This document shows, in pieces, positions 1,952-35,571 of a DNA stretch of 52,615 bases. Every line of letters begins with the position of its first letter. The first letter of the stretch is position 1. Under the pieces are notes generated by a model. That model ran no database searches. It saw nothing but the letters and a program-made list of their open reading frames with translations, and had not been told where the DNA came from. Source of the DNA: an uncultured Candidatus Kuenenia sp. (GTDB lineage Bacteria > Planctomycetota > Planctomycetia > Pirellulales > UBA1268); the NCBI GenBank assembly GCA_964508125.1, contig CAZDTC010000001.1, forward strand, positions 1 to 52,615. The letters are read 5' to 3'. The position numbers and the translations under genes were made by a program.

Positions 1952-3478
1952 TTAGGCCGGGCTTGGGGTGGCAGTCGGCGTCGTGAACGCGCGGCGATAC
2001 GACCACCCATTGCGAAGGCGATTCTTTACGGTCGCATACTTGATCCCACTGGCCTTGGCCGCCGCTCGGATACTGTCGTACCGGAAGATCTTTCTGTCGT
2101 GGCGAAATTCAATCCTAGTCTTGTTTCGTCGGTTGCTGTCAGGCGGCGTGGTAAGTGCTCTTCTCACACTCCACCCCAGAACATCCAGTCGATAACTGAC
2201 GCAGGTCTCCGACAGCGAATACTCCTTGGCGGCTCTCCTGCGACTAGCGTAGCAATACAACTTGCCACGATAACGAAACCGCAGTGGCTTCGCCTTTGTG
2301 GTTGGAGAACCAAGATCCTGCAGGCCTGCCGCCTGCTCAGGGGTTTTGCCCATCCGAAGTCGCCGCCGGAACGTATCTGGATTGACCTCGTAGCATCTGG
2401 CGGCGGCGGACTCCGACGGGAATGTGGTTCCAGCAACCCTAATCGCTCTGCCACTTACAGCGGAGCACCCACCGCCGCCTCGTGACTTGTTAAGGCCAAC
2501 GGGAGCGAGGGTGTTTAGCAAGGCAATAAAATGCCTCTCGAACGCATCGAGCTCGTGTTGCGTGCCAGCGGTGGCGAGAACCTCGGTTCGAAATGAACCT
2601 GGTCCGTCACGTCTTATGAGGGCAGCCACCCGCGACTCCGTTCGCGTTGGCGCACGCAAGGCATCAATGCAGTGCCGAGCCCAACGCCGAGCGAAAGTCG
2701 TCACCGTTTGCCCGACGTACTTCTTGCCAGAGGGAGCATGGGTCAACAGGTACACAATCCCAAAAGATCGTTTGGTGTGCTTTGGGTGTGGCTCTAGGTC
2801 GAGAGCTTGTTCCAACGTCCAGCCCGCGTTTTGGTGACGGTCGTAGACCGTCTCATACGTCTTGTTGAAGTGCCTGCAGGCCGCCCTAAGGCTCCGAAAG
2901 TGCTGCGGTTCATCCGATGCCCGAACCGTAACAGCCCTTTTGTTTTCAGGGGGTGCAAGACCAACGGCAGCCTCCGGTGACTGACCAGACTGAATGCGAT
3001 GCCGAATGGTGTCGCCACTCATGCCGTAATGGGCGCCGACGGCACCATACCCGTGAAACGTGAGTTGTTGATCGCCGTCATGAACTGTGATCAGGGTTGA
3101 ATTATGCGTAGGAGGCCTCTTTGGAGGGTCAGTCAATCCGACCGCAGCCTCGATAGACCATCCGCGATCAACGGCCGCCCGTATCCGAGCCTCCGGGATG
3201 TTGAAATAGCGCCCCAGCCTCGCATAGCCCCGGAAGGTGCGACGGACGCCATCCACGACAAGCACGAAAGTCTTGGTGTTTGGCGGCTGAGGCCTTTCCG
3301 GAGGCGGATCTAAACTGACGGCCTGTCGGCTCGTCCATCCAAGCCGCAGACGATCTTTGATCTTTCCGCTTGGCACGTTGTATTCATTGGCAGCGGCCTG
3401 CCTGCTCTCAAAAACCCGCAACATGCCGCCATCCAATACGGAGAAAGATGTCTTCATGGGCCTAACGTCTACGCTCAC
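1952..3478 (-). CDS. GIY-YIG nuclease with seven flanking ~55-aa HTH-like (NUMOD/IENR-like) repeats
   Basis: The GIY-YIG core is at aa 239-332 (nt 2483-2764): 'FGIVYLLTHAPSGKKYVGQT', 'RRWARH', 'ELDAFERHFI', 'GLN'. Four N-terminal and three C-terminal repeats share the pattern '..G....F.S...AA.......T...R...GWS.E.A', e.g. 'IEFRHDRKIFRYDSIRAAAKASGIKYATVKNRLRNGWSYRRAFTTP'. Confidence 0.75.
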   Translation of the reverse strand: MSVDVRPMKTSFSVLDGGMLRVFESRQAAANEYNVPSGKIKDRLRLGWTSRQAVSLDPPPERPQPPNTKTFVLVVDGVRRTFRGYARLGRYFNIPEARIRAAVDRGWSIEAAVGLTDPPKRPPTHNSTLITVHDGDQQLTFHGYGAVGAHYGMSGDTIRHRIQSGQSPEAAVGLAPPENKRAVTVRASDEPQHFRSLRAACRHFNKTYETVYDRHQNAGWTLEQALDLEPHPKHTKRSFGIVYLLTHAPSGKKYVGQTVTTFARRWARHCIDALRAPTRTESRVAALIRRDGPGSFRTEVLATAGTQHELDAFERHFIALLNTLAPVGLNKSRGGGGCSAVSGRAIRVAGTTFPSESAAARCYEVNPDTFRRRLRMGKTPEQAAGLQDLGSPTTKAKPLRFRYRGKLYCYASRRRAAKEYSLSETCVSYRLDVLGWSVRRALTTPPDSNRRNKTRIEFRHDRKIFRYDSIRAAAKASGIKYATVKNRLRNGWSYRRAFTTPTATPSPA

Positions 3479-3866: not shown

Positions 3867-4316
3867 TCAGCGTCGGGCCCGCGCCGCTTCCCGCTGCCCC
3901 TGGACATCGAGGATCTCGGCAACCTCAAACACCGGAGGCATCGCCCCGAACCGCGGCCGCAGGCGGACGACGGGAACGAAATACCCAGCCCGTCCGTGAA
4001 TCTCGGCAATCACCAGGCAGGCGACGGGGGAGAGCGCTGGCGGCACGATCGCCAGCCTGCACGACTGCCACTGTTCCGATGTCAGTCCAGCGGCCTCGAC
4101 AAAGCCAGCCGCCTGCTCCGCGAACGGCCGGGCCAAATCGCAGTGGGTTGGAACCGCCAAGATGTGATCTACGCGCCAACCCGATAAGCGCTCACAAGCT
4201 GCCACCTGTGCTCTGGTGAGTGGATGGGCAAAATTAATGACCGTCACCTTGGGGGCTTCCCCGCCGCAACCGCGCAACGTCGGAATGTCGGCCCGGTTGA
4301 GTTCCATCTCAGCCAT
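3867..4316 (-). CDS. Small alpha/beta protein, possibly Csx15-like CRISPR-accessory family
   Basis: 'VINFAHPLTRAQV...LAIVPPALSPVACLVIAEIHGRAGYFVPVVRLRP...PPVFEVAEILDVQ' matches my recollection of Csx15-family proteins, which I cannot verify without a search. The start is set at an internal Met, because the ORF-track start at 4439 adds an Arg/Gly-rich extension. The gene is divergent from the CARF gene at 4681. Confidence 0.4.
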   Translation of the reverse strand: MAEMELNRADIPTLRGCGGEAPKVTVINFAHPLTRAQVAACERLSGWRVDHILAVPTHCDLARPFAEQAAGFVEAAGLTSEQWQSCRLAIVPPALSPVACLVIAEIHGRAGYFVPVVRLRPRFGAMPPVFEVAEILDVQGQREAARARR

Positions 4317-4680
4317 TCTCCAGCGAATCCCTGACTGCCTTTCCTCCACCAGCCTGGCGTGCCCTCCGCCGCCGCGTGCGTCGGTCTTGATGGACGCCCG
4401 AGCCAGAAAGATGCGTTGCATGGCCACGCCGGATCTCATGCGGCTTGCGACGTTTTGGCATCCTTAGGCAGTGGCGGTTCACGGCGACCATTCCAAAATC
4501 TGGTGACAGGTTGGAAATTGAGGCATCCTGTCCTTATTACGCATGGATCGACTCACACGTGACCAAACGGTCCCGGACTGCCGTTCTCATCGCATATAAA
4601 GAAGGGAATTTCCCTGACCGACGACGGGCCGTCACGTTTCGCCCAGTTCGTTCGTATCGTTTGCGAGGAATCTCCCATCC

Positions 4681-6150
4681 ATGAAAACCATCGTCTGCAC
4701 AACGGGCACCTCCATCGCCGCTGGCGTGCCAGAAGAAACTCGGAACCGCGGCGGCGAAGCATTTCGCGAAGCGATTCGCAAGCGGCTCGCTGGTCTTGCA
4801 TCTGGGCTGGCGTCTGGCGAGTTTCTCGAGCGTGCGAGCGCCGAATCCAACAGCGTCTGCCGGCTCGCTCCCGCGGCAGGCGACCGCGTGGTTCTGCTCT
4901 GCTCTGAAACCGATGAGGGGACGATCTGCGCGGAGGAGGTACAGCGTCTTCTGGCCAATCATCTTCACGTCGCCGCCGAGTGCCGGCGCATCGAGGGCCT
5001 GCAGGCTTCGGACGCAACACGCTTCCGCCGCGTCGGCGTGCAGAACCTGTTCGGAGAGCTCGATCGCCACTGCGGATCATCACGATCTGGCGGTGGCGAC
5101 TCCGTGTTTCTTAATGTAACCGGCGGCTTCAAGTCGGCCGTCCCTTACGTGACGCTTTACGGCCTTCTTCACCAGGTCCCCGTGGTATACATCTTCGAGC
5201 GAAGCGACCGGCTATTCACGCTTCCCCAGGCCCCGGTGCGATTCGACTACGATCGCCTCGCTCCGGCCGCTGAAGCGATCTTCACGCTCTACCGTGAGAC
5301 GGACATGCCCAAGGAGGAGTTCTTCAAGCGGATTTCAGGGCTTCCGTTCCACGAGCGGGCGATCTATGAACCGCTGCTCGACGAAGAAAACGGCCGCGTC
5401 ATGCTCTCCGCCTTCGGCTTGCTCCTCCACGAAGCACTGCAGCGGGATCGCGGCAACGTCTTCCTCTCCCCGAGTGCTGCCAAGGCATTCGAGGACGCCA
5501 CGGGCGACGCCCGCGACCAGCTCGCGTTCATGCTCGACCGGGTCGGTGACCCGCTGATGCGACGAGCGAAACGCCACTCATTCCACGGCACCGATCTCGA
5601 GGTCTACAAGCCGGGCAACACAGCACAGCGAATGGCCTACTTCATGCGCGGTGACGACGTGCACGTCTGCGAGCTCTATCCGACACACGACGAGGGCTAC
5701 GAGAAGATGTTGGCTACAAGGCGAGTCGCTGACTACGAAACCGCCCGGTTCGTGCCTTGGTCGCGGCCTGCGGAGTTGCCGCCCAGCCCATCGACCGACG
5801 AGCAATGGGCGAACGAGCAGGCCCGAAAGTTCTCGCGGCTACAGGACCGCTGTACGATGCTTGAGCGCCGGGCCGCAGAAGCCGAAGAGCAGGCCTTGCG
5901 CCTCGTTGAACTTGAGGACGAGATCGCCGCAGCCCGCGCCGAGGCTGCTTCAACGGAGGCGAGGTTTGCGGCAACCGATGCGGAACGGCTTACCCTCGCC
6001 GCGCAGGTCGAGCAGGGCCGTGCACGCGAGCAATCGCTCCGCGACGAGGCGATGTCGGCAATCGCGTCGGCAGACCGCGTTCGACGCTTTGCCTCGGAGG
6101 CCGGCTGGCTTGGGCGTCTACGGTTCCTGCTCAGCGGAAAGATGACATGA
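4681..6150 (+). CDS. CARF domain - RelE/ParE-like toxin domain - coiled-coil fusion protein
   Basis: The N-terminus 'MKTIVCTTGTSI', 'SAESNS' and 'FLNVTGGFKSAVPY' are hallmark CARF (APE2256/Csm6-type) motifs (aa 1-250). Residues 258-345 (nt 5452-5715), 'VFLSPSAAKAFEDATGDARDQLAFMLDRVGDP...LEVYKPGNTAQRMAYFMRGDDVHVCELYPTHDEGY', follow the RelE/ParE pattern. Residues 375-465 are heptad-rich and Ala/Glu/Arg-rich (coiled coil). An SD-like 'gaggaa' lies upstream. The stop overlaps the next ATG (ATGA at 6147-6150). Confidence 0.75.
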   Translation: MKTIVCTTGTSIAAGVPEETRNRGGEAFREAIRKRLAGLASGLASGEFLERASAESNSVCRLAPAAGDRVVLLCSETDEGTICAEEVQRLLANHLHVAAECRRIEGLQASDATRFRRVGVQNLFGELDRHCGSSRSGGGDSVFLNVTGGFKSAVPYVTLYGLLHQVPVVYIFERSDRLFTLPQAPVRFDYDRLAPAAEAIFTLYRETDMPKEEFFKRISGLPFHERAIYEPLLDEENGRVMLSAFGLLLHEALQRDRGNVFLSPSAAKAFEDATGDARDQLAFMLDRVGDPLMRRAKRHSFHGTDLEVYKPGNTAQRMAYFMRGDDVHVCELYPTHDEGYEKMLATRRVADYETARFVPWSRPAELPPSPSTDEQWANEQARKFSRLQDRCTMLERRAAEAEEQALRLVELEDEIAAARAEAASTEARFAATDAERLTLAAQVEQGRAREQSLRDEAMSAIASADRVRRFASEAGWLGRLRFLLSGKMT

Positions 6151-7001
6151 GCGAGAGGTCTCGCGTGATCCGCCGACGCAGAATGCCGGGGGTGGATTTC
6201 CATTCCTCCGGTGGGATATACCGAATCCACTTTTCGGAGAATCCGAAGATCGACGCCGCAACAGGATTGCGAATGAGTTTCGACTCGGAAGAAACCATCG
6301 AGTCTCGCATCGCCCGCTGGTTGGAGACCGGCGAGGGACAAGACGACGTTTTTCGAGCCGTCACCAAATTGATCGAGGCACGGCGCAGGTACTTTTCCGA
6401 ACTCTACGGCGAGCGAGTCACGACGGAAGCACTGGACGACGCTCCCGGGCGGGTGTTTCTAAAGATCCGGGCGGGCCGTTTCACCGCAGGAAGACCTTTT
6501 CGTCCATGGCTGAAGATCGTTCTAAGGAACCGGATTTTTGACATCCTGCGGCAGGAGGAGCGGCGAGCAGAGAAGTTTCCGATACATGACAAAGCCGAAA
6601 CCGTACGTGACGACGCCGATATCGACCGAACGATCAATGTCGCACAAGACGCTTTGCAGGCAGACCTGCTCGTTCGCGTGGTCGCCGAGCTCGAACGTCT
6701 TCTCAAGCCCGACAACCGACTCATTTTTGCCGTCGCTTCCGGACTTGCTGAGCACCTTGATCGGCCGGTGCTCGATCGTTGGTGTGCCGCCTGCAACTGC
6801 GGGCTGCCACTTCGCGAGGTCGTCGATGAGTTGCTGGAACTTCCAATCCACGGTCGGCTGAGCAGACTTGCCACTGCGTTTGGCCTCAAGCCGAATACCT
6901 GCATCAAACGTTTCCATCGGGCTGCGGAGGACCTTGCGAAATCTCCGCTCTTGAAGGACCTTCGGAATATTCTGGACGGAGCAGTCCCACCAGGCGCCTG
7001 A
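6147..7001 (+). CDS. ECF-type sigma-70 family factor (with ~65-aa N-terminal extension and insert in region 4)
   Basis: Region 2-like 'EALDDAPGRVFLKIRAGRFTAGRPFRPWLKIVLRNRIFDILRQEERR' aligns by eye to RpoE '[38 protein letters not shown]'. Region 4 HTH-like 'LSRLATAFGLKPNTCIKRFHRAAEDLAK' is also present. The gene is translationally coupled to the upstream CARF-RelE gene. Confidence 0.65.
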   Translation: MSERSRVIRRRRMPGVDFHSSGGIYRIHFSENPKIDAATGLRMSFDSEETIESRIARWLETGEGQDDVFRAVTKLIEARRRYFSELYGERVTTEALDDAPGRVFLKIRAGRFTAGRPFRPWLKIVLRNRIFDILRQEERRAEKFPIHDKAETVRDDADIDRTINVAQDALQADLLVRVVAELERLLKPDNRLIFAVASGLAEHLDRPVLDRWCAACNCGLPLREVVDELLELPIHGRLSRLATAFGLKPNTCIKRFHRAAEDLAKSPLLKDLRNILDGAVPPGA

Positions 7002-7095
7002 ACGAGGCCAGGCAGAACGCCTGTCACGAATCCACAGACTCCCGCGTAAACGAGCTAGATGGGTAACACGACGGAGTCACTTGCGAGACACTGCG

Positions 7096-8112
7096 ATGCA
7101 CGACGACACTTCCCTCATTCAGACACTGGCCCGACTCGGCCAGGCTGCGGCCGCTGACGCCGCGGCGGCCCGCGGCGTGCTTGCTGACCTGGGAAGGCGG
7201 GCCGCGTCTGGTGCGGAACCCCTCCACGTTGCCGCCGGCGCGGTGCCCGCCCTCCTTCAGGCGGGCCGCGTGATCGCGTCGGAAATCGCTCACGAAACCA
7301 AGCAGTTGTCGTCTCTCGACGACCGCTGGCATGCGGCGACATCGCAGGCCGAGGCCGACGCCATAGCGTCCGCCCCGCTCGCCGCGCGTCTGGAGGCAGG
7401 CTTCGCGCTTGAGGGCGTCGAGTCGCTGATCGAGACCACCGCCGGTGAAACCGGCCCGATCAAGGACGTGGCGCGCAACCTGGCCTCGGCCATTGTGGCC
7501 TACGATGCGTCGCTGCGTCGCAACCTCGACTGCCTCTGCACGCTTGCCGACGGCGATTCACTAATTGCGTGGCGGCGATCACTACCGCCGGGCATGGATT
7601 TTCCGTGGTGGCTCGACGGTACGCTCGAAGCACGGGCTTGTGCAAATGACAAGCATTCGGCGGCCCTTGCCGCGCGGCTTGCGAGTGCGTTTGCCGGACA
7701 ATCTGTCGCTGCCGCGCCCCGACTGGCAGCCTCGACAGTCGCGGCAGCGGCGATCGGCACTGCGGCAGGTTATTCCCTCGCGGCCGCGATACCGCCGGCT
7801 GCCGGCATCACGACGCACATCTGGCGTCATCCTTCGCGGCCCTTCGAGGCGGTGCTGTGGGTGCCGGCCAGGTTCGCCGACGACGCCGACCTGAGGATGG
7901 TGTTCCAGGCGACCGGCCCGGGGTTCGCGCCCCGCGATCTCGTGGGCGAGGTCGTGATGCTCGGCGGACTGCCTGCGGTCGTCCGGGAGGATGGCGAGGG
8001 TCCGGCCGCTCGCGTGGAAGCGACGTGGCCGGCGCACGCCGTGGCCGACTCCATCCGCAACACGGTCGCGTTGACAGACGGCCGCGGCGACAACTGGATT
8101 CCGGCGGAGTGA
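7096..8112 (+). CDS. Hypothetical Ala-rich protein (~338 aa); positional candidate for anti-sigma / protease substrate
   Basis: Long ORF in the operon between the sigma-factor gene and the Lon/CARF/palm gene, with no recognisable motif. The ATG at 7096 is preferred over the TTG at 7081. The functional label is inferred only from position. Confidence 0.5.
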   Translation: MHDDTSLIQTLARLGQAAAADAAAARGVLADLGRRAASGAEPLHVAAGAVPALLQAGRVIASEIAHETKQLSSLDDRWHAATSQAEADAIASAPLAARLEAGFALEGVESLIETTAGETGPIKDVARNLASAIVAYDASLRRNLDCLCTLADGDSLIAWRRSLPPGMDFPWWLDGTLEARACANDKHSAALAARLASAFAGQSVAAAPRLAASTVAAAAIGTAAGYSLAAAIPPAAGITTHIWRHPSRPFEAVLWVPARFADDADLRMVFQATGPGFAPRDLVGEVVMLGGLPAVVREDGEGPAARVEATWPAHAVADSIRNTVALTDGRGDNWIPAE

Positions 8113-8125
8113 CCCTTCCGCCTCA

Positions 8126-11100
8126 GTGGCCGTCCCGCCGGGGCCCGCAACGATGTTTGTACCCTCCCGCGACACACTCGATACATCCTGTCGCGACGAT
8201 GCATCGGCTGACCCGCAGCGTGCTGTACGGCTGGTCAGCGACATGGGCCCTCTCGGGCGGCTCTGGCTGCGGCCCGATGTTCTCGCGTTGGCGGAGCGAT
8301 TTGCCGGCGGTGCGTCGCTGCCGCGGGCTCCACTGGGTACTGGCGGGTTTCACGCCCTGCTTCTGACACCGGGCCGCGGCCGCTATGCAGCGCTCCGCCC
8401 AGCGTTCGCCCTGCCGCTTCGGTGGGTGGCCGGCGACACCCATTCCCCTCATCTTCCGCCGGGACTCACCGACTTCGCCACAACGCTGCTCGCCGAACAT
8501 GAGATCGAGTTCGGCATCGCCCCTCCTCCCACGGGCCATTGGACGCTGCAACTCGGCGGCTTTCTCGAGGGGCGGTGCGACTTCTCGCAGTTCGACTTCG
8601 GATGCGAGTGGGATTCGGCGACAGCGTCGCTGCTCGGCGGATTGCTGCTCGCGGTGATCGGGGCACCACCCGATGAGCAGGTGATGGCGTCAATCGCCTG
8701 GGGCCCGGGCGGTCTTGGCCGGGTGGAGGGCATTGCCGACAAACTCGACGCTGCCCGCGACGCGGATGCCCGACTCGCATTCCTCGCCGCCGCCGATCGC
8801 GAAGACGCAGCCCGCTGGCACGTCGCCAATCCTGACGCTCCGCTGCGAACCATCGTGCTCGAGTCCCGACCCACGCTTCGTGAGTCGCTGGCTCCCTTCC
8901 TCCAGGCGATCGAGGCCCGGCCCAGCGCCGATGCCCCCCTCCCGGAGCTGCAGCGGTTCTACGAAAAGCGGCTCTTGGGGGCCGATTTCGCCGAGCACCG
9001 TCGCAGCTTTTACCTCGACGTAGTCGTCGATCGTATCGCCGCCGACTATCGGGGCCCACTTCCGCCCGCCGATCCGTGCCGCAACCTGATCGGCGTGGTC
9101 GGCCCGGGCGCGGCTCCGCCGCTGGCGTTCCTCGCCCGCGTGCTGGCCCCGCGCCGGGTGCTGCTCCTGCACGACGCGCAGGCCGCCAGGCACGCCGAGG
9201 CGCTCGAGGCCCACCTCACAGGCGTCCGCGGCGTCGCCGTGACATCGCACGAGTTCAAGACGCTCTTCGGCCCGCTCGACGAGTTGCGACCGGAGGTTGA
9301 GCGGGCGATTGCCGCATTTCTTGGTGACGACCCGGTCGACGACGGCTTCGTGGACACGGTGATCGACCTCACTGGCGGAACCCGGCGGCTGCCCTTCGTC
9401 CTGCTCGACATCGCGCCCGCGCGAGCCGCTTGCGTGCACATCGATGCCGAACGCGTGAGCGGTCAGATCGAGAGAATCGGCACGGAGAAGATCGTCACGA
9501 TCGACGTCCCGAGGGCGGGGCGATTGGCGTCGAAACTTCTTGCCGCGCTGTCCCAGGGTTCCGTGTCGGTGCCGGTATGGCACCTCGCGCCACTTGACCG
9601 ATGGCACCTGCTGCGTGACACGTGCCTTGGCCACGCCCCCGTCCGCGGCGGCATGCGCACTCGTGATCTGCCGCTTGACCCCGAGGCTCGCGAACTGGTG
9701 CAGACAGCCGCCCGTGTCCAGTCGAGCGAATACGAAGTGGGCGGCAAGGTGAAATGTCGTTTCGGAGATTGGCTTTACCTGTTCGCGGTTCTCGTCGAGC
9801 CGGCGTTGGCGAAATCACCCGATGCGGCCCACGCGGCGATCCGCGAATGCATGCTGGAGCTGCGGCAGGCTCTCGGACTCAGTGAGCTCCGGGATTTCGC
9901 CAACAAGTGCCCGTTTCACCACCGTCTGCTTGGCATCCTCGGCCTGAGCCGGCAGGAGTGGCAGCGACTCGCGTCTGAGGGCACTTCTTTTGAGCGGGAA
10001 CGACTGGTCGCGAGGCTCGGCGCCCGTGTCTGCGCTGCATTCCGTAGCCCCGAGCCCCCACACCTTTCACCGGAAGATCCGGATGTGCTCTCCTGGGCCG
10101 TACGTGCGATTGGGGCCAAGGATCGTGACCGAGAACTTCTCCAGGATCTCGCTGACGCAAAGCGGGTTCTGGTGACGATCAAGCCGAAGGATATCCAGCC
10201 GTACATGCATCGCGCGAAGATGCATTGGATGATGAGGGGGGCGAGCGTCTGGTGTGCGCAGTCGCTGGGCTTCGCCCGCGACCACATCCTCGAAAAGCAA
10301 GGCGGACTGCTACTCAGCGACCTTGATGCCCTCGTGGCATTCGTGTTTCCCGAAAATGCTCCCGTGGTGAAAGACATGCTTCAGGGTGTCGCGGCCGCGT
10401 GGGCGAACCCTGCATCCTTCAAAACCAAATTCCCACGTCTTGCCGCTTACCACCCAGCCAACGAACAACACCGCCACCACGGCATCGACCCCATTCAGTC
10501 GCTGCCGCTCCTATCTGCGTGGCGATATCCAACGACGTCGCTTCTCGATCTCTGCGTTGCACGCGGTTCGCGCGCCCCTGAAATGCGTGGTGAAATTCCA
10601 CGACCTCTGCCGCGCGACGCCGCCACAGCCGCAGGCGACGTTCCATGCTCCTTCGTCGAGCGGGAAAACGCCTATGTTTCACAATCACCCACGTGGCTGA
10701 CTGACCGCAGCGACCGACAACGGGAGAATTATGGTTGGTCGGCGCTCTGCTGGTCGCTCGCTGGGACAACCCTGCGGACCCACTGGCATCACGGCGTGTG
10801 CGCAGCACTGAACCGTGACGACTACCCGATGATGGCGGTCAGCCACGGCGGCTGGCTCGAGCATCTCAAGATGAAGACCGAGCGGCTAACTTTTGTGAAA
10901 CTGGATGGAGACGGTGTTGGAGAGCGTTTTCTCAATGAATCATTTCCAAGTCGCCCACTTCTCGGCCTGAAACTCGGCCGGCTTGTTCAGGAGCGGGTCT
11001 TGGCGGCCACACGGCGCGTGCTCGAGGTTCACGACGCGGCGAAACGCCCAAAGTATCTCCCCGTCGACCTGGTTTACTTCGGCGGCGATGATATTTTCTT

Positions 11101-11491
11101 CTGCCTACCAGGCTGCTACCTCGAGCCATTTCTGCAGGGCTTCGGCCAATCGTTCGATGGGAGCGAACTCGCTCCATGGAAGTCCACGCGTTTCAGCGCT
11201 CTATCTGTCACCCTGCCGCCGGGGTCGGACTTCAAGGACAACGGCCGACTGTCGCAGTCGGAGGAATTCGCCCGCGCGAACCTGGCAGCTGCAAAGACGC
11301 TCGCTCCCGGCCTGCGGGACCTCGTCAAGCGAGGGCACCCTGATGACGCCACTCTCGCCAAGCTGAACAATTCAGTCGCGCCCCTGGGCTATCGCTGCGA
11401 GTGGGGCGGGACCCATGCAGACACCGGCATCGTCCACGGCGTCAGCCTCAGGCTCGTCCGGCTTACCCGCGACCCCGCGATTTCCGGCTGA
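8126..11491 (+). CDS. Multidomain protein: Lon-like (S16) Ser/Lys protease motif + CARF-like Rossmann domain + helical region + C-terminal GGDD palm (mCpol/Cas10-like cyclase) domain
   Basis: Lon-like: 'EWDSATASLLGGLLLAVIGAPPDEQVMASIAWGPGGLGRVEGIADKLDAA' parallels the Lon 'GDSAS...AL.G.P....VA.TG.....G.V..VGG...K..AA' pattern (Ser164 at nt 8615-8617, Lys206 at 8741-8743). CARF-like: 'RRVLLLHD...VIDLTGGTRRLPFVLL' (TGGT at nt 9371-9382). Palm: 'LTFVKLDGDGVGERF' (nt 10904-10915) and 'VDLVYFGGDDIFFCLPG' (GGDD at nt 11081-11092), as in Cas10 / minimal CRISPR polymerase. No HD domain was seen. Confidence 0.6.
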   Translation: MAVPPGPATMFVPSRDTLDTSCRDDASADPQRAVRLVSDMGPLGRLWLRPDVLALAERFAGGASLPRAPLGTGGFHALLLTPGRGRYAALRPAFALPLRWVAGDTHSPHLPPGLTDFATTLLAEHEIEFGIAPPPTGHWTLQLGGFLEGRCDFSQFDFGCEWDSATASLLGGLLLAVIGAPPDEQVMASIAWGPGGLGRVEGIADKLDAARDADARLAFLAAADREDAARWHVANPDAPLRTIVLESRPTLRESLAPFLQAIEARPSADAPLPELQRFYEKRLLGADFAEHRRSFYLDVVVDRIAADYRGPLPPADPCRNLIGVVGPGAAPPLAFLARVLAPRRVLLLHDAQAARHAEALEAHLTGVRGVAVTSHEFKTLFGPLDELRPEVERAIAAFLGDDPVDDGFVDTVIDLTGGTRRLPFVLLDIAPARAACVHIDAERVSGQIERIGTEKIVTIDVPRAGRLASKLLAALSQGSVSVPVWHLAPLDRWHLLRDTCLGHAPVRGGMRTRDLPLDPEARELVQTAARVQSSEYEVGGKVKCRFGDWLYLFAVLVEPALAKSPDAAHAAIRECMLELRQALGLSELRDFANKCPFHHRLLGILGLSRQEWQRLASEGTSFERERLVARLGARVCAAFRSPEPPHLSPEDPDVLSWAVRAIGAKDRDRELLQDLADAKRVLVTIKPKDIQPYMHRAKMHWMMRGASVWCAQSLGFARDHILEKQGGLLLSDLDALVAFVFPENAPVVKDMLQGVAAAWANPASFKTKFPRLAAYHPANEQHRHHGIDPIQSLPLLSAWRYPTTSLLDLCVARGSRAPEMRGEIPRPLPRDAATAAGDVPCSFVERENAYVSQSPTWLTDRSDRQRENYGWSALCWSLAGTTLRTHWHHGVCAALNRDDYPMMAVSHGGWLEHLKMKTERLTFVKLDGDGVGERFLNESFPSRPLLGLKLGRLVQERVLAATRRVLEVHDAAKRPKYLPVDLVYFGGDDIFFCLPGCYLEPFLQGFGQSFDGSELAPWKSTRFSALSVTLPPGSDFKDNGRLSQSEEFARANLAAAKTLAPGLRDLVKRGHPDDATLAKLNNSVAPLGYRCEWGGTHADTGIVHGVSLRLVRLTRDPAISG

Positions 11492-11584
11492 AATCGCGCT
11501 TTTTTCCCGTCGGTCACGCTTCGCGGCCCCCGAGCGTACTTCCCGTGTCGACCGATATTCGCTCCGACACGATAGGAACCCGCC

Positions 11585-12562
11585 ATGAACAACCGCACTC
11601 TCGCCCTGCTCGTCGCCGCCATCCTCGCAGTGGTCACCATTTTCGGCCTTCAGTCGCAGCAGAGCGCCGTCGTGGTTCGCCCCGTCCCTGCCGATGTGGC
11701 CGCCGGCACCTATGACCGCATCCACCTGAGCGTAGCCGCCGCGACGGCGCGAAACGAGCAGGCTGCCCGACTCTGCGAGAGCGAGATCAACATGATCCTT
11801 GCCCGCGAGTTTCCCGAGATCGAGCGCCGCGGGAACAAGGTCGCCGAGGAGGTCGCAAGCTATGGCTCCTGCTGCACGATCATCTACCGCCTGGCCAAGG
11901 AGAAGCTCGGTTGGTCTTCGAGCACGGCCGACTACGTCGAGGGCGAGATCCGCGGTCGCCTGCAGCCGGCCCTCGACACGTGCGGCCGCGAACTCGACAC
12001 GGCCCTCGACCGCTGTGAACTCGCCCTCAGGGAGAGCACGGTGATGCTGGCGACTGAGCTTGCCCAGATGAGTCCGTCTCGGGCTGACCAGTCGATGAAC
12101 ATCGCCGTGGACGTCCGCACCGGCGGTGACCTTGACCAAGCCCTTCGCAATCTTGGCCTCAGCGGCGGCATTCTCACGGTGAGCGGCGCCTTCGACGTGG
12201 TCGCCATCATGAACACCACCGTCTTCCGCACCATGATCCGCACGATCGTGGAGTTGGCTGCATCCCTGTTCGCCACGCCTGCCGCCACTGCTGCTGGCTC
12301 GGCGGCCGTGGCGGCCGCTGACGGCCCTCTGCCGGTGGGCGACGTCATCGCGGTGCTGGGTGGAGCCTGGACGGCCTACGACATCTACGCAACCCGACGT
12401 GAGTTCGAGCGGGAAATCAAGGCTTCACTCTCGAACGCCCTGCCGGAGATGAAGCGAACCGTCCACCACCAGCTCATGGAGCGACTCCACTCGCTCCAGT
12501 CCGAGTACCAGCGGGCTCAAGACCGGATCCGCAACGAGATGGCCTTGAACCTCACCCGATAG
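11585..12562 (+). CDS. Membrane protein, family A (paralog of 44665..45696)
   Basis: N-terminal TM segment 'LALLVAAILAVVTIFGL', then a helical domain, then C-terminal hydrophobic segments with the conserved 'DGPLPVGDVIAVLGGAWTAYD'. An SD-like 'aggaa' precedes the ATG. Clear similarity by eye to the 44665 ORF. Confidence 0.65.
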   Translation: MNNRTLALLVAAILAVVTIFGLQSQQSAVVVRPVPADVAAGTYDRIHLSVAAATARNEQAARLCESEINMILAREFPEIERRGNKVAEEVASYGSCCTIIYRLAKEKLGWSSSTADYVEGEIRGRLQPALDTCGRELDTALDRCELALRESTVMLATELAQMSPSRADQSMNIAVDVRTGGDLDQALRNLGLSGGILTVSGAFDVVAIMNTTVFRTMIRTIVELAASLFATPAATAAGSAAVAAADGPLPVGDVIAVLGGAWTAYDIYATRREFEREIKASLSNALPEMKRTVHHQLMERLHSLQSEYQRAQDRIRNEMALNLTR

Positions 12563-12572
12563 GAGCCCTTCC

Positions 12573-13484
12573 ATGACCACCTTCAGCCGCCGCCTTGTCC
12601 TCGCGTCGCTTCCCCTGCCGGTGGCGTTTGCCGTCGCCACGTCCGGCGTCGCCTTCGCCGTGCCGGGCGTGGGAACGCTCGTGCGCGAGACCGTGGAAAT
12701 GGCCGTCAAGAAGAGCGGCCGTGAGGTCGTCGAGCGTGCTTCTCGGGAAGTGGCCGAGCAGGCCATCGAGAAGGGTGTGGCGAAGTACGGGCCTCGGGCG
12801 GCCCAGGCCGTCGTCGACGGCGGCATGGAGCTCGTTGAGGCATCCGCGAAGTACGGCGACGACGTCATGCGGGTGGCTGTTGAGGCGACACCAGCGGCAC
12901 GCCGGGCGCTCGCGCTCGAACCGGGCCGGATGCTGCCCCTCGTCCGCGAACTCGGCCAGGAGGCCGTCGAGCTCGAGGCCAAGGCGCCGGGCCTCGCCCA
13001 AAGGGTGTTCACCACCTTTGGCGACGACGGCGCGCGGCAGATCGCCCGAACGGTTCCGGCAGAAGACGTGCCGCGGCTGCTTTCCCACGCCGAGCGGGCC
13101 GAATCTCCGGCTGTGCGTCGCGCACTCCTCGACGCTTACAAGAAGGAGGGGCCCGCGATGTTTGCGAAAATCACGCCCAAAATAGTTGTTGCCATCGGGG
13201 CGAGCGGCGCCCTCGTGTACGGCACTCACCGGATGACCGGTCCGTTCGCTGCCTTGGCCCACTGGATGCGCATCAATCCTGATGCGGCCCGTGACATGCT
13301 TCGGGGGCTTCTTTGGATCATGGGCACGGTCGCCGTCCTGACGACGGTCTTTGTACTGGGATCCTTTCGCCTCACCCCGTGGCACGCTCGACGGCCAGCA
13401 GATCACTGGAAGGCAACAGGCTCAGATCCTACGGGGACTGCAGCGGGGGACCGACGCACCGCTATCGACGGCGTGTCCGGTTGA
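12573..13484 (+). CDS. Membrane protein, family B (paralog of 45708..46628)
   Basis: Signal/TM 'LVLASLPLPVAFAVATSGVAFA', a helical Ala/Glu/Arg-rich domain and two C-terminal TM segments. SD 'aggag' lies 8 nt upstream, directly after the stop of the previous gene. Similar along its length to the 45708 ORF. Confidence 0.65.
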   Translation: MTTFSRRLVLASLPLPVAFAVATSGVAFAVPGVGTLVRETVEMAVKKSGREVVERASREVAEQAIEKGVAKYGPRAAQAVVDGGMELVEASAKYGDDVMRVAVEATPAARRALALEPGRMLPLVRELGQEAVELEAKAPGLAQRVFTTFGDDGARQIARTVPAEDVPRLLSHAERAESPAVRRALLDAYKKEGPAMFAKITPKIVVAIGASGALVYGTHRMTGPFAALAHWMRINPDAARDMLRGLLWIMGTVAVLTTVFVLGSFRLTPWHARRPADHWKATGSDPTGTAAGDRRTAIDGVSG

Positions 13485-13572: not shown

Positions 13573-15153
13573 TCAGCATTGAACTGCATGCCTGATGGCA
13601 TCACACACCCGACGGCAGACGGCGTCCACATGCACGAGGTCGACTGCGGCCTCCGTATCCGACTCTCGATTGTGAGCAAAAGTGTCCCTCGTGATCCGCA
13701 GGCTGTCGAGATCGTTGAACAGCCCTGGAAGGTAGCGAACGGCAGCCGCCACGAGTTGCGAGTGCGCCGCGACGCTCGGCGGGTCACACAGCACCAACGG
13801 CAACAGCCAGATCGTAATACTCTCGCCGAAGCCGCACTTATCGCTCTGGATCAATTGCACGGCCGGAACGATCTTCCTGGCCGACTCGACGCTTCGGCAT
13901 AGGTGCGTAAACGACCCTGCTACCGCCTCCCTGAGACCAATTCGGTCAAAAGCTTCCGTCACATTCCGCTCGCCCACTCGCGACTCGATCACGGCGGCCT
14001 GCTGCTGACGAGGCAGCCGCTGCAATTGCTCCCACCACCCCAGCACATGGTCACGCGACTGGTGCCGCAGTTCGACGCCGATTTGTTCAATCAGGTGCTC
14101 GTATCCAGAGCACGCATCGCGGTACGTGGGTGCTCCGGCCTGCCACTGAACCAGGTTCCTGTGCGGAGTGTCAACCCAGTCCGCTACTATCGGCAGGACG
14201 CTGCGCAGGTCATCCACAGTCCATCCTGCTCTCTTTCGGTGAGCGGTCACGCGACGCTCGAGTTCGGCGGCGCTACCGATAACCGTTGGCAGATGAGACA
14301 TCTCGTAGAGTTCTTGGCAGCGATTCTCCACCTCTGCATACACCTCGGGCACGTTGGTGTTCATCCACTGCCCAAGCCGCTCATCCACCGGACCGTCGGA
14401 CTCGGCCGAATCAGTGTCCTCTGGCAGGCTCACGACCGGTGCATGAAATACAGCCAAAGGGCGATCGCTGACCCGCGGAATCAATACAACTTTGGACCAC
14501 ACGCACGTTCGCTTCCATGGGCCGCCGATGGGCTCGCGAGCCTGATCCCTGAGGATGGATCTGACACGTAGAGCGCCTCGCTCGGGCAACGAAGTGGCTG
14601 GAAGATCAGGAAACGACACATCCGCGCCAGCGTCATCGTCATCGCTCGCTTCATCGTCGTCGGCATCTTCCTCGGAGGCTGCTCCCAGGGGCTCGATCCT
14701 CAAGCTCGGCCAACCCGGCAGCATGCGGAGTTCGAAGTCCAGGTCGACGTCCTTGACGCATGCTCGCATGTCGATCGAAACGCGCGGCGATGGCAGATCT
14801 CGGTCGAGCCAGACGGCAGGCAAGAGGCTGGCTGTATGGGGAGCAACGAAAACCCAGCCAGGCATCAGGGCTCTTCCGGCAATGTGCGAGTCAGAGGCAT
14901 TGCTCGCGACAAACAATTCCTTGCTTCCCTCGACGACCTTGCACAGTTGCTCGTCGATGAGCAGGTTCACCGCGGACTGGACGATGTCCTCGGGAATCGC
15001 GAGTTTCCGGACCATGTCCTGGATCGACTGCGCTCCGGCCTCCATCAAGCGGAGAACGGTCTCCGACAGAAGATCGAGATGATCCTCCGCGTCTATCGCG
15101 ATCTGAACCGGCACTGCCACCGTCGGAATCGAAACCCAAAGCACTTTTCTCAT
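13573..15153 (-). CDS. wHTH-like N-terminus, acidic linker, C-terminal HEPN-like (Rx4H) domain protein
   Basis: The start at 15153 overlaps the helicase stop (ATGA), indicating coupling. The N-terminus 'LSETVLRLMEAGAQSIQDMVRKLAIPEDIVQSAVNLLIDEQL' is wHTH-like. An acidic run 'ASEEDADDDEASDDDDAGAD' follows. The C-terminus 'LRITRDTFAHNRES' contains R-D-x3-H (nt 13672-13689), the HEPN RNase signature. Confidence 0.55.
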   Translation of the reverse strand: MRKVLWVSIPTVAVPVQIAIDAEDHLDLLSETVLRLMEAGAQSIQDMVRKLAIPEDIVQSAVNLLIDEQLCKVVEGSKELFVASNASDSHIAGRALMPGWVFVAPHTASLLPAVWLDRDLPSPRVSIDMRACVKDVDLDFELRMLPGWPSLRIEPLGAASEEDADDDEASDDDDAGADVSFPDLPATSLPERGALRVRSILRDQAREPIGGPWKRTCVWSKVVLIPRVSDRPLAVFHAPVVSLPEDTDSAESDGPVDERLGQWMNTNVPEVYAEVENRCQELYEMSHLPTVIGSAAELERRVTAHRKRAGWTVDDLRSVLPIVADWVDTPHRNLVQWQAGAPTYRDACSGYEHLIEQIGVELRHQSRDHVLGWWEQLQRLPRQQQAAVIESRVGERNVTEAFDRIGLREAVAGSFTHLCRSVESARKIVPAVQLIQSDKCGFGESITIWLLPLVLCDPPSVAAHSQLVAAAVRYLPGLFNDLDSLRITRDTFAHNRESDTEAAVDLVHVDAVCRRVCDAIRHAVQC

Positions 15154-18100
15154 GAATGCACCATCCGGCTTGGAATCACGATGCCGCGGCATCCGTCTGC
15201 CACTTCCTGCTGCATCGCTTCGAACACGCGACGCATCGGGGGCGGCTCGCGTGTCCCGCGAGTCCGGGCTGCGAGGGTGGCCGTGTCGCCGATGATGATC
15301 AGCTGCCGCTGGGCACGCGACATGGCAACATTGATCCGCTGCGGCAACGCCATGAATCCCAGGGATGCGTTCGGGTTGCTGCGGACTGCCGAAAGAATCA
15401 CCAGCGGATATTCCTTGCCCTGAAAGCTGTCCACCGTTCCGATCTCGATCGTTCGCTCGATATCTGGCCTGCCCATCTGCTGCACGAGGGCCTCGATTAG
15501 TTTTCTCTGCTCGCTGTAGAACGCTATGACGCCGATCGTCTTGCGGCCGCCGATTTGTTCCGCGAGCGTGGCAATGGCCTCGGCATCGACGGTCTTCAAG
15601 AGCGTTTCGATAATGGCTACTTCGTACCGGTTGGTTTCATGGCAAGGCCATGCCGGAACCCGACGGATCGCTCGCTGCGTCGGATCGGCCAGCACGTCGC
15701 TCGTATCGATCCAGACCAGGGGATGATTCGTCGCCTTACCCCACACGGGGTCGTCCGCCTCATGCCCCCTGCCAACCACGGGGATACCGAACGACGGCAA
15801 CCGGGACTTCGCTCGCGAGAGGTCGTGCGTCCAATGTGAATCCAGTTTTCCGTCATAGAAAACGTTGCTGATGGTCTGCCCGATGGCCTCATGCATCCGG
15901 TACTGCATCGTCAGGGGGATCTTGTTCTCGCTCGGCACTCGTGCCCAAAGCCATTCAAAGAAGGACTCCCGCTGAAGATCGACTTCGCGTCCTTCCTCCA
16001 TCTGTTGCGCGATGAGTTTGTCCACGTGCGGAGGCAACTGCTGCTGGTCGCCGATCAGCACCACGGATCGCCCAAGTGTCATTGGGATGAGGATGTCGAT
16101 GCCTGCCCGGGCCGCCTCGTCGATGATGACGACGTCATAGCCATCATTGACGCCCACTCGTGGTGCAGCCGACCGTTGACACGTCGCGGTTGAAACCGGA
16201 GCATGCCTCGCAAACACCTTCTCGAGCCGCCTGGGCTCATCCCGAAGCGCTCTGATCCATGAGTAGATCACGGCAGGCTCACCCGTTGCGACCTCGCTCT
16301 TCGCGTGCTCAACGCAGCCCGCAGCGAGGCCCATCCACTCCACGACGTCTCTCTCCACCGGGGCCCAATGATCCTCGTATGCAGCCTGACTGTCATCCTC
16401 GCGTTCCGTTGACAAGGCCGCCACCGTGCGTTCGATGAGCCCCTGCCACGAGCTGACCACATCCGCCGGTACGGAGTCGCTCAGGGCGAGGCCGAGCTTC
16501 ACCGCGAGCGTACGCCACTCCTTGGCCAATGCTTGGTGCGCGACAGGCGCCTCGAGAAGCGACTTCCACGCATCGGAAGCGGACCTCACCGTGTCAGCAA
16601 CCTGCTTGGCTGCATCGGCGGCGGTCGTGGCGGGAGATGCGGAGAGCCGCACCAGTAATTCCGTCACGGCCGAGCCGCCCGTCACCTGCACGACGATCGA
16701 CGGCTGCTGCCGGCGCTCGACATCGGCCTGTATTGCCCGCCGCATCGACGACTCTATCGCCGCCAGCTTCTGCACCAGCAGCGGCGGCAACTCCGTCGCC
16801 TCCTCGGTCGCAGCGATCCCCACGAGCTCGGCAACGACAGCCTCGTTCACCTTGCGGGCGGCGACTTCATGCCGCAGCGTGCGGATCCGATCCCCGAGGT
16901 CGCTCAAGCGGAGAAAACTGATAAACCGCGAGTCCCCTTCCACGGTCGCCTTCAACCGGGCGACGATACGCGCCGCCTCGCTGAGGAACCGCCGCGTCTG
17001 AGCGACACGGTGCCTGTTTTTGCGATCCGAGCCAAAATCCGCGTAGACCTGCACTTCGTCGCCGGAAAGTTTCTCGATCGCGTTGAGGACCGCATCGTTC
17101 TGCACGCTGGTCACGAGCACGCGCAGTGGACCGCCTTCCTCCTCCCGTCGATTCCTGTATCGCCGCCGCAATGCGTGAATCAGCTCCACGATCACGCTGG
17201 TCTTCCCCGTGCCGGGCGGTCCTTGGACCAGGAATAGGCCCGGTTGCTGCACCGCCCGCTGGATGGCCCCCTTCTGGGCGTCGTTCAGCGGTGGCGATCC
17301 TTTTCGTGACTCGTACTCGTTCTTGGGCGGCGAGACCGGCGTCACCGACGACGGGTCGGAAACGTACTGCAGCATTTGCGGACAGGCCGCCGCACCCGTC
17401 CGCAGTCTTGTGATCGCTTCTTCCCGCCGTCTTCTCTGGGCTGCGTCACCGGCATCCTCGGCCGCGATCAATCGCCCTCGCGCGAACGGTGCTTTGCCAT
17501 CTCGTATGCGTATCGTCGCCACAGTACGTCCCGCGTTGGCGTCCTCGGCAAACGCCACCACCTCGGCCGCGATTGGATCGGCGTGGGAGTCACCTGCTTC
17601 GAGTGAATGCATCTCGACCATGCCCTTGACGCGCACGCCCCGCCGCAGATCGAAGTTATCACTGGCAATCCATCGCTCGATGGCTTCGCGTGGGCTGGCC
17701 ACATTGACTCTCCACGTGTCACCCGCCGCCTGCCCGACGACCTCGAGGTAATCGAGCGGCGTGCTCGCCCGCGATTCAAAAGTCCCTCGTTCTGCCGCCT
17801 TTGCGATCATCTCGTATTCCAGCCATGCATCTAGGAACGGGTGCGGCCGGGGCCTGAAGGTCGAAAGGTCCGCGAACCTGATGTTCTGCTCCGTCACAGT
17901 GAATACCGGCGGCTGCGACACCGCGATCAGTCGTGCCTCGGGAATGGCCGTTGGTCGATCCTGAATCTCCTCGACAACTAGGTACTCCGCGCCACGACCA
18001 CCTCCCACGCGACACGCCAGCCGCTTTCGATTTGCGAGATACACGTATATCCGCAACGCATCGGCCGACGACGACTCGATCGACCCGAGCAGGGGCGTGG

Positions 18101-18584: not shown

Positions 18585-18586
18585 GC

Positions 18587-22468: not shown

Positions 22469-22488
22469 GCTTCTTTTCCTCTGGCCGC

Positions 22489-28946: not shown

Positions 28947-32467
<3,521 letters not shown>

Positions 32468-32471
<4 letters not shown>

Positions 32472-35525: not shown

Positions 35526-35529
35526 CACG

Positions 35530-35553: not shown

Positions 35554-35571
35554 CGAGCCGTCTGGGTGCCG

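Follow-up and report, generated by a model that had tools for sequence, protein, structure and literature searches.

How could an alarm assembled from type III CRISPR parts be raised where neither a CRISPR array nor an RNA-guided complex lies nearby? This question is posed by an operon at 3867-13484 on contig CAZDTC010000001.1 of an uncultured Candidatus Kuenenia sp. (assembly GCA_964508125.1), within the 52.6 kb stretch of DNA analysed here (the window, to which all coordinates refer). The operon encodes a CARF-RelE protein, a putative, divergent ECF-like sigma factor, a protein of 338 amino acids (aa), a 1121-aa protein that joins a Lon-CARF protease half to a Cas10-like half (hereafter Cas10L), and two membrane proteins (m325 and m303), and csx15 lies divergently upstream. 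Cas10 is thought to need a Csm or Cmr complex guided by CRISPR RNA (crRNA), together with target RNA, so a conserved Cas10L without such partners poses the problem of its activation, and the occurrence of these parts with no array or RNA-guided complex nearby suggests that the alarm is triggered in another way. We consider it somewhat more probable than the contrary that the locus encodes type III CRISPR-derived cyclic-oligoadenylate (cOA) signalling that operates in the absence of any effector complex guided by crRNA, and that the operon lies on a defence island bounded by recombinases. An earlier note on this DNA had proposed the same logic, which held in so far as a Cas10-family cyclase stands with cOA sensors and effectors and without cas effectors; the identity of the cyclase, the significance of its fusion and the start of the sigma gene had to be corrected.

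Every open reading frame (ORF) named in the earlier note was present at or very near the coordinates given there, and gene calls made independently on near-identical metagenomic contigs returned the same gene set. Comparison with an 85%-identical relative (L010) gave ratios of non-synonymous to synonymous substitution rates (dN/dS) of 0.14-0.26 across every operon gene tested (m303 was left out); because of these values the operon genes tested are real and under purifying selection.

The C-terminal half of the 1121-aa protein had been read as a minimal, mCpol-like GGDD palm. The GGDD motif is indeed present and of Cas10 type, but the domain is not minimal. None of 45 Cas10L homologues departs from DGD (aa 927-929) or GGDD (aa 986-989), and the palm1 motif VQ.[FY]I....RGAS.W, typical of Cas10, is conserved in the family, its RGAS.W portion being invariant in all 45 sequences. 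PADLOC Cas10 models matched 39 of the 45 members (best about 1e-13), the Cas10L profile matched a type III-D Cas10 structure in the PDB (8bmw, 4.8e-9), and canonical Cas10s aligned to profile positions 202-539, covering both palms. An AlphaFold2 (AF2) model of Cas10L (pLDDT 86, pTM 0.88) was compared with known structures using Foldseek, and the top 50 matches were all Cas10, Csm1 or Cmr2 (probability 1.0, 420-843 aligned columns), with no solved mCpol structure among them. From the family models, the PDB profile match, the fold matches and the invariant motifs we assign Cas10L as a full two-palm Cas10 homologue lacking an HD domain; assignment to mCpol was rejected on size, profile and fold. 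Pfam, NCBIfam and PADLOC gave no HD family match for Cas10L; HD-less proteins exist among genuine Cas10s too, and the absence of the domain by itself does not exclude membership of the Cas10 family. The N-terminal 220 aa of Cas10L carry a conserved motif of their own (RW..L..LLGH.P.RGG.RPRD.P). On its fold and active-site motifs Cas10L is predicted to be an oligoadenylate cyclase. We also observed a palm1 beta-hairpin, S266-D267-x-D269 in the numbering of the 9521-11488 translation (window 10316-10327), whose Asp residues are invariant in 45 of 45 relatives and whose Ser is invariant among closer relatives (A6). This position is usually regarded as degenerate in canonical Cas10, and in Cas10L it might form a second metal or nucleotide site.

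The surroundings of Cas10L agree with the earlier statement that CRISPR array, cas effector and adaptation genes are absent, which was borne out within the 52.6 kb window. No array was found there by TRF, a repeat finder or a k-mer spacing scan, and no Cas7, Cas5, Cas6, Cas1 or Cas2 by Pfam and/or PADLOC scans, which together spanned the large ORFs and the intergenic small ORFs of the window. To view related loci we mapped eight families and their neighbour genes onto 32 fetched loci using phmmer and hidden Markov models (HMMs) built from window proteins and homologues; one search for such loci was seeded with the nine closest Cas10L sequences. No arrays were found in the Cas10L loci L001-L008, L010-L018, L026-L029, L031 and L032, and no Cas7, Cas5 or Cas6 was found among the neighbour genes scanned in about 15 independent Cas10L neighbourhoods of 10-22 kb each, L009 included. 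Cas10L is found in five or more defence-type operons that are unrelated to one another, and the genes scanned in them include neither Cas7 nor Cas5.

The N-terminal half of the 1121-aa protein, Lon-CARF, is the predicted sensor. Its Lon-like Ser164/Lys206 pair and CARF motif, both pointed out previously, were confirmed: Ser164 and Lys206 are invariant across 43 Lon-CARF homologues, and in the D-L-T-x-G motif of the same set D414 is invariant and T416 and G418 are at least 90% conserved. The 1121-aa protein matched the PADLOC CARF_m2--CARF_LON model at 6.1e-53 (aa 28-444), with weaker Cas10 model matches at aa 911-1011. Searching the PDB with the single 1121-aa sequence returned nothing and family profiles were required; the Lon-CARF profile matched the CARF domain of Thermus thermophilus Csm6 (5fsh, 4e-10), Cam1 (2e-7) and the LonB protease domain (1z0e, 1e-7). 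By these profile matches the CARF domain appears nearest to CARFs of the cyclic tetra-adenylate (cA4) type, those of TtCsm6 and Cam1. CARF-Lon proteins were still merely "bioinformatically predicted" in 2022 (PMC9704534).

The fusion of the signal generator to its own sensor and protease, as the earlier note had it, exists in the window but is specific to this lineage, the two being separate genes at 72% identity and below. A word-index homologue search with the whole 1121-aa protein recovered near-identical fused relatives only. An exhaustive phmmer search covered 1.84 billion representatives, and among its best 150 hits, which were examined, there was no full-length relative; these hits fell into two classes, one mostly of 440-480 aa aligning over aa 10-460 and the other mostly of 615-850 aa aligning over aa 466-1119. 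At 72% identity (L011) the end of Lon-CARF and the start of Cas10L overlap as ATGA (...GGGCGATGAGCCATG...), and in all other, more distant relatives they are likewise separate genes. The window junction (9497-9530) reads ...GGGCGATTGGCG..., about 20 N-terminal Cas10L codons having gone in frame relative to positions 330-350 of L011. The fused form recurs in several independent metagenomes, which excludes an assembly artefact. It is recent, having arisen by in-frame deletion at an ancestral ATGA stop/start overlap, and translational coupling in L011 followed by fusion in the window argue for physical or functional coupling of Lon-CARF and Cas10L.

The genes for Lon-CARF, the sigma factor and the 338-aa protein form a triad, whose synteny was kept wherever it was observed, at identities as low as about 30% (the window, L001-L003, L006, L010 and L029-L032). 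The sigma factor matched NCBIfam sigma70-ECF at 1.4e-5 and 16 other sigma models, all below their curated cut-offs (best 5.8e-6); Pfam Sigma70_r2 matched at 0.0076, and a profile search of the PDB matched ECF SigL at 0.013 with region 2 aligned. The family has a conserved F..PWL..V.RN...D..R block and a C-terminal block resembling a helix-turn-helix, and these two blocks fit ECF regions 2 and 4. The earlier suggestion that the sigma start overlaps the CARF-RelE stop at 6147 is probably wrong: the first 42 codons of the ORF (6147-6272) have a dN/dS of 1.56 against 0.24 for the remainder of the gene, the start conserved in the family is Met43, gene calls in relatives give 238-242 aa, and a promoter-like element, GGTGGATTTCCATTCCTCCGGTGGGATA, which lies within these codons, is found in L030 in non-coding DNA upstream of the sigma gene. 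On these grounds 6273 is the probable start of the gene, which would then have a promoter-like element of its own in front. The element occurs once in the window, where 0.01 chance matches are expected at up to three mismatches; it was found in L001-L003, L029 and L030, and with changes in L010. Neither the rest of the window nor the DNA upstream of other genes in the related loci yielded a second copy, and a spaced-dyad search for a sigma regulon motif gave chance-level motifs only.

The 338-aa protein belongs to a family of 25 proteins, the full-length members of which are all 331-353 aa. Its AF2 model (pLDDT 84) comprises a helical domain (1-198), a disordered Ala-rich linker (200-231) and a beta domain (238-337). 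No fold match to this model was found in the PDB or BFVD at E<=1e-3, and the protein had no sequence match in Pfam, NCBIfam, PADLOC or the PDB (by sequence or by profile). Homology to CalpT or to an anti-sigma factor was thus detected neither by sequence nor by fold. From synteny the 338-aa protein is predicted to be both the substrate of Lon-CARF and the inhibitor of the sigma factor. The Ala-rich stretch (hydropathy 1.52) was also considered as a transmembrane helix, which is unlikely: it is modelled as a disordered linker and takes an 11-residue insertion in L006. As a cleavage site the linker is plausible, because the P1 pocket of CalpL takes only small residues such as Ala or Gly.

Two further families tie the operon to cOA signalling. 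The CARF-RelE protein, correctly named by the earlier note, matched the PADLOC CARF7--CARF_RelE profile at 3.4e-50 over positions 4-343 of 344, and it matched Pfam Cas_APE2256 (1.8e-24) and, over its CARF part, PDB 8phb (2.1e-31). The architecture of an N-terminal CARF and a C-terminal RelE-family nuclease was recognised from the PADLOC profile match. It shares the full-length profile match and the APE2256-family structure 8phb with Cami1, which is activated by cA4 (PMC11229360), and by analogy it is predicted to be a cA4-activated, ribosome-dependent mRNase; it differs from Cami1 in an additional C-terminal coiled-coil of about 120 aa and in having no type III system nearby. The divergent Csx15, also reported earlier, was upheld at equivalog level, scoring 131.5 bits against NCBIfam NF040560 (CAS_Csx15, 1.9e-38) where the curated cut-off is 35, and matching PADLOC Csx15 at 7e-30. 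The Csx15 family is known as a cA4 ring nuclease or sponge (PMC13148439), and the window protein is predicted, by analogy, to act likewise as an off-switch or threshold setter. Unlike known Csx15 it is linked here to Cas10L, in at least six loci (L006, L013, L016, L029, L031 and L032), and not to a CRISPR locus. An element, GAATTTCC...GTCACGTTT, lies at 4606-4639 in the intergenic region between the two genes, and the same element is found upstream of the CARF-RelE gene in L029.

The earlier note read the two downstream genes as encoding membrane proteins, with which the hydrophobic segments evident from hydropathy are consistent. Its suggestion that they could be a third output was not sustained, since the core that is most mobile and best conserved consists of these two and Cas10L: m325, with m303, adjoins Cas10L in L012 and L026-L028 and lies inside the cluster in L006, L031 and L032. 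Neither protein matched Pfam or NCBIfam; PADLOC gave a weak LeoBC match to m325 (1.5e-3), and no CARF, SAVED or beta-barrel domain was found in either by the three databases. In four independent contigs of the 85%-identity sub-lineage (L002, L003, L004 and L010) m303 is split by a frameshift or stop, and it may be dispensable there. A paralogous pair lies elsewhere in the window (44665-45696 and 45708-46628, both +; hmmsearch 3e-56 and 2e-66), there unaccompanied by a cyclase, and because of this second pair the membrane proteins are not exclusive to Cas10L. Its neighbours are two CsgG-like proteins (38488-42021), a GTPase with DUF697 (42044-43477, -), a NAAA-beta-like hydrolase (43379-44566) and a Peptidase_C92 protein (47526-48401).

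Table 1. Features of the proposed cOA signalling operon and its immediate flank (window coordinates; dN/dS is relative to L010).
Feature	Position	Strand	ORF as listed	dN/dS	Remarks
csx15	3867-4307	-	3867-4439	0.22	146 aa; ORF as listed runs to 4439; relatives called as 146 aa
Divergent intergenic region, csx15 / CARF-RelE gene	4308-4680				Holds conserved element
CARF-RelE (Cami1-like)	4681-6150	+	4681-6150	0.14	489 aa; coiled-coil extension at C-terminus
Promoter-like element GGTGGATTTCCATTCCTCCGGTGGGATA	6191-6218	+			28 nt, 55 nt upstream of probable sigma start codon
Putative divergent ECF-like sigma factor	6273-7001	+	6147-7001	0.24	242 aa from Met43 (probable start); ORF opens at 6147
338-aa protein	7096-8112	+	7081/7096-8112	0.22	Between sigma gene and Lon-CARF in all syntenic loci
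Lon-CARF (CARF_m2 family), N-terminal half of 1121-aa protein	8126-9520	+	8126-11491	0.21	Lon-family Ser/Lys protease domain and CARF sensor
Cas10L, C-terminal half of 1121-aa protein	9521-11491	+	8126-11491	0.19	HD-less two-palm Cas10 homologue, about 650 aa; predicted oligoadenylate cyclase
Terminator-like hairpin, then T-run	11476-11498	+			Overlaps stop of 1121-aa gene; between it and membrane genes; from consensus scan, weak, the region's matches overall not being above shuffle expectation
m325	11585-12562	+	11585-12562	0.26	N-terminal transmembrane segment, helical soluble region, more hydrophobic segments, C-terminal coiled-coil
m303	12573-13484	+	12573-13484		Signal or transmembrane segment and C-terminal transmembrane segment; follows m325 in every case

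Among the related loci the parts were found in several combinations. The arrangement in L029, where the 338-aa protein is 61% identical to that of the window, runs csx15 (-), CARF-RelE, sigma factor, 338-aa protein, Lon-CARF, a 95-aa ORF, Cas10L, a viperin-like radical-SAM protein and an MkoA-like helicase. At about 30-35% identity, L006 (a Cyanobium metagenome-assembled genome), L031 and L032 share the order m303 (-), m325 (-), sigma factor, 338-aa protein, Lon-CARF, pVip (-), DUF4230 (-), Cas10L, csx15; L013 and L016 are partial fragments of this type, and L031 and L032 also have an adjacent Mokosh type I-like set. In L012 and L026-L028 (58-74% identity) the genes for Cas10L, m325 and m303 stand behind an operon of VWA, kinase, HATPase_c and radical-SAM genes. 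In L026-L028 (1-13984) Cas10L (63-74% identity) ends this operon of about 11 genes, which encodes VWA, Ser/Thr kinase, HATPase_c and small radical-SAM-like proteins and several without assigned family, and m325 and m303 follow; P0159 (47% identity) has the same upstream operon. L014 (223-11279) and L015 (4768-12019), with Cas10L at 34-36% identity, encode in a tight run of co-directional genes an endonuclease-like protein, an LmuB-like SMC ATPase (about 1160 aa) and Cas10L, plus a 1179-aa protein in L014, and this operon resembles a Lamassu-like system that includes a Cas10-family enzyme. In L008 and L018 an MkoA-like helicase is accompanied by an MkoB-like protein (L008) or a kinase (L018) beside Cas10L. 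The most distant type (23-24% identity), L009 (8149-11920) and L017 (486-7610), consists of PurM-like (AIRS) and ThyA-like proteins, Cas10L and a Schlafen(AlbA_2)-NACHT NTPase; in L009 these are followed by a Cas2-domain fusion, cas1, cas2 and an array of 21 repeats, and neither Cas7 nor Cas5 (RAMP) was found there. Finally, in L030 the genes for the sigma factor, 338-aa protein and Lon-CARF are part of a genuine type III locus, together with a Cas6-like gene, an array of about 58 repeats, Cas2, Cas1 and a canonical Cas10, and there was no Cas10L in the 21 kb fetched.

Because the triad lies inside a type III CRISPR locus in L030, we conclude that it is a cOA-responsive accessory module, and from its neighbourhoods that Cas10L, usually with m325 and m303, is a separate mobile cassette; the window joins the triad and the Cas10L cassette with Csx15 and a Cami1-like effector. 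The stand-alone status proposed in the earlier note holds for the sequenced neighbourhoods only, and the triad also occurs as an accessory inside a type III locus. Taken further, Cas10L would be a family of full-size, HD-less Cas10 enzymes that act without crRNA, Cas7 or Cas5 and supply an interchangeable generator cassette (usually with m325/m303) to at least five defence architectures, namely sigma/Lon-CARF/Csx15 with or without Cami1, Lamassu-like SMC and endonuclease, Mokosh-like helicase, PurM-like/ThyA-like/Schlafen-NACHT, and VWA/kinase/HATPase/radical-SAM. The family would then represent either a living relic related to a pre-CRISPR ancestor or the repeated recruitment of Cas10 away from CRISPR, and we hold this wider proposal tentatively, at rather less than an even chance. 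A pre-CRISPR signalling ancestor has been proposed for type III effectors.

Taken as a whole, the window resembles an integrative defence island bounded by recombinases. Large serine recombinases lie at both ends (12-1769 and 49903-52596, both +), the fragment of a tRNA 3' end at the right edge (52562-52615, -) was the sole match in an Rfam scan of the window, and a 28 nt tandem repeat in two copies occurs at 49888-49946. Between the left recombinase and csx15 is a GIY-YIG/NUMOD1 endonuclease of the group I intron endonuclease type (1952-3478, -), which is kept in L003. Convergent to the operon are two Mokosh-like genes (13573-15192 and 15150-18644, both -), an MkoB/MkoA-like pair in which the helicase matched MkoA at 8e-110 and its partner has MkoB-like N-terminal similarity. 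MkoA-like helicases also stand beside Cas10L in six other divergent loci (L008, L018, L026, L029, L031 and L032), some of which also have PLD and/or viperin-like radical-SAM proteins. The link to Mokosh could be functional, for example as a sensor, or could reflect hitch-hiking on defence islands; this recurrence is suggestive, but orientation and gene identity vary and the Mokosh-like neighbours were kept outside the parts of the system. Another candidate defence cluster (28746-38475, +) encodes an SNF2-type helicase with NOV_C, a DUF1156 methyltransferase, whose ORF overlaps that of the helicase and whose start is uncertain, and a DUF499 ATPase. Upstream of it lie a DUF2357 protein (18587-22561, -), a PDC-M26A-like protein (22489-25308, -), a glycosyltransferase and kinase-like pair (25714-27407, -) and a radical-SAM protein (27623-28414).

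We propose that Cas10L makes a second messenger. Its most likely identity is cA4: each of the three sensor or degrader families represented here is specific for cA4 wherever it has been investigated (PMC11229360, PMC13148439), and the CARF domain of Lon-CARF is nearest to the cA4 type. The messenger would bind this CARF domain and activate the Ser164/Lys206 protease, which would cut the 338-aa protein, probably within the disordered Ala-rich linker; cleavage would free the ECF-like sigma factor and so reprogramme transcription. In parallel, if the protein behaves as its family does, the same messenger would activate the Cami1-type CARF-RelE to cut ribosome-bound mRNA and arrest translation, and Csx15 would degrade or sponge cA4, lowering noise and resetting the system. 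The membrane pair m325/m303 may regulate or anchor the cyclase or serve as a membrane effector. Candidates for the trigger are the conserved 220-aa N-terminal domain of Cas10L, the membrane pair and the adjoining Mokosh-like helicase.

Comparison with known systems places the locus between several of them. The sigma module is organised like CalpL/CalpT/CalpS (a SAVED-Lon protease, an anti-sigma factor along with an ECF-like sigma factor of type III loci), shares with it the Lon-family Ser-Lys dyad (S164, K206) and, as with Calp, occurs inside a type III locus in L030. It differs in that the sensor is a single CARF (CARF_m2) instead of SAVED4, no resemblance of the 338-aa protein to CalpT (a MazF-like fragment with anti-sigma function) is detectable in sequence or fold, the sigma factor is highly divergent, and the protease is fused to a Cas10 homologue with no CRISPR nearby. 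With type III Cas10 (closest: III-D, Csm1 and Cmr2) Cas10L has in common two palms, the palm2 DGD/GGDD and the palm1 RGAS.W motif, but it lacks HD, its identity to solved Cas10s is only 9-14%, and its operons are non-CRISPR, with no Cas5, Cas7 or Cas11 partners or crRNA source in about 15 neighbourhoods. Panoptes I/II resembles the window in having a Cas10-family GGDD cyclase outside a CRISPR complex, next to membrane proteins and on defence islands. Its mCpol is a minimal single palm of about 250-300 aa, whereas Cas10L (about 650 aa) has palm1, palm2, further Cas10-like regions and the 220-aa N-terminal domain. Panoptes is the only characterised CRISPR-free Cas10-family system, in which mCpol occurs with S-2TMbeta, CARF-TM or SAVED-2TM partners or as HEPN fusions, and its descriptions mention no Lon, sigma or RelE partner (PMC12657218, PMC12657230, PMC13577387). 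The earlier statement that mCpol pairs with a transmembrane SAVED effector was accurate in that such effectors exist, but the main partners are S-2TMbeta and CARF-TM, SAVED-2TM being minor (PMC12657218). Consistent with the view that the gene combination is undescribed, we found no published account of Cas10L or of the CARF-Lon/sigma triad, although an earlier listing is possible in Makarova et al. 2020 (NAR 48:8828) or Burroughs et al. 2015 (NAR 43:10633). We regard the system as a form of cOA immune signalling that contains a previously uncharacterised Cas10 family.

Several points weigh against CRISPR-free cOA signalling as we propose it. The mechanism is read from sequence and predicted structures, canonical Cas10 is inactive without the Csm or Cmr complex and target RNA, and the view is limited to 52.6 kb of the genome, elsewhere in which a type III system may exist. 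The sigma assignment depends on sub-threshold similarity, no sigma regulon was identified because GGTGGATTTCCATTCCTCCGGTGGGATA is single in the window, the 338-aa protein is unlike CalpT and unlike any anti-sigma factor, and no nucleotide-binding domain is detectable in either membrane protein. Cas10L also occurs in operons without any CARF protein (L014/L015, L008, L009/L017 and L026-L028), which suggests that what it makes or does may in some cases not involve a CARF ligand. The limited genomic view leaves some room for the locus being a trans-acting accessory cassette of a canonical type III system elsewhere, with cOA supplied by that Cas10 or with Cas10L joining a Cas7/Cas5 backbone. L030 does carry the triad in a genuine type III locus, catalogues list Csx15, Cami1 and CARF-Lon alike among type III accessories, and a distant Cas10L (L009, 24% identity) adjoins cas1, cas2 and a 21-repeat array; yet the window has its own intact Cas10 homologue, under purifying selection and coupled or fused to the sensor protease, the scanned genes of about 15 independent Cas10L neighbourhoods include no Cas7, Cas5 or Cas6, and L030, with its canonical type III system, shows no Cas10L in the 21 kb fetched. 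We judge such a cassette unlikely, if worth keeping in mind. A decaying type III locus, stripped of effectors and array and left with genes that no longer form a functional system, would account for the missing effector and adaptation genes and for the disruption of m303 in one sub-lineage; it is very hard to reconcile with dN/dS of 0.14-0.26 in all genes tested, with catalytic residues invariant in 43-45 relatives and with retention of the same gene set, rearranged, at about 30% protein identity in the Cyanobium-type loci, and we give it hardly any credence.

Two further alternatives concern what Cas10L makes and how its product is read. In Panoptes-like inverse (guard) signalling, a basal cyclic nucleotide from Cas10L would keep an effector such as m325/m303 off until phage sponges or ring nucleases deplete it and free the effector. 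The sole characterised CRISPR-free Cas10-family cyclases, mCpol of Panoptes I/II, act in this way with membrane effectors (PMC13577387, PMC12657218, PMC12657230), Cas10L, m325 and m303 are the most conserved core here, and no dedicated infection sensor is evident. Against this, Cas10L is a full two-palm Cas10 by our assignment and not an mCpol homodimer, and Pfam, NCBIfam and PADLOC revealed no sensor of CARF, SAVED or beta-barrel type in the membrane proteins. Moreover, positive signalling seems more likely by argument from known systems, because Cami1 and Calp-type Lon proteases are activated, not inhibited, by their ligand and a host Csx15 ring nuclease or sponge would itself set off a guard system; the ligand-activated soluble effectors and ring nuclease of the window fit positive signalling, and distinguish it from the Panoptes partners. 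The guard arrangement accordingly seems to us a poor fit, with a small probability. About equally small is the chance of a different chemistry, whereby Cas10L makes a modified or conjugated nucleotide (e.g. SAM-AMP) or is a template-independent polymerase, and the CARFs answer another source or a non-canonical ligand. This would suit the CARF-free operons that place Cas10L beside the nucleotide-modifying PurM-like and ThyA-like enzymes (L009, L017), the radical-SAM or viperin-like neighbours in L006, L013, L026, L029, L031 and L032, and the conserved palm1 S-D-x-D hairpin, which is not expected in a dead palm; Cas10 enzymes are also known to take other building blocks (PMC13577387). It sits less well with the window and Cyanobium-type clades, which tie Cas10L to three cA4-type families together, and with the fusion of Cas10L to a CARF sensor whose profile is nearest to cA4-binding CARFs.

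If cOA signalling through Cas10L is borne out, CRISPR-free Cas10-family signalling would extend beyond the minimal mCpol of Panoptes. The fused protein could be a self-contained generator, sensor and actuator that switches an alternative sigma factor, and the single-chain Lon-CARF::Cas10L with its predicted 338-aa substrate could offer parts for nucleotide-gated protease circuits. The triad resembles a second, independently assembled protease-to-sigma switch, with CARF in place of SAVED and an unrelated substrate; second-messenger-controlled transcription would then be a recurrent immune output and not a one-off. For the Cas10 family as a whole, Cas10L bears on the descent of type III effector modules from stand-alone cyclase-plus-CARF signalling, and would provide extant proteins with which that descent may be tested.

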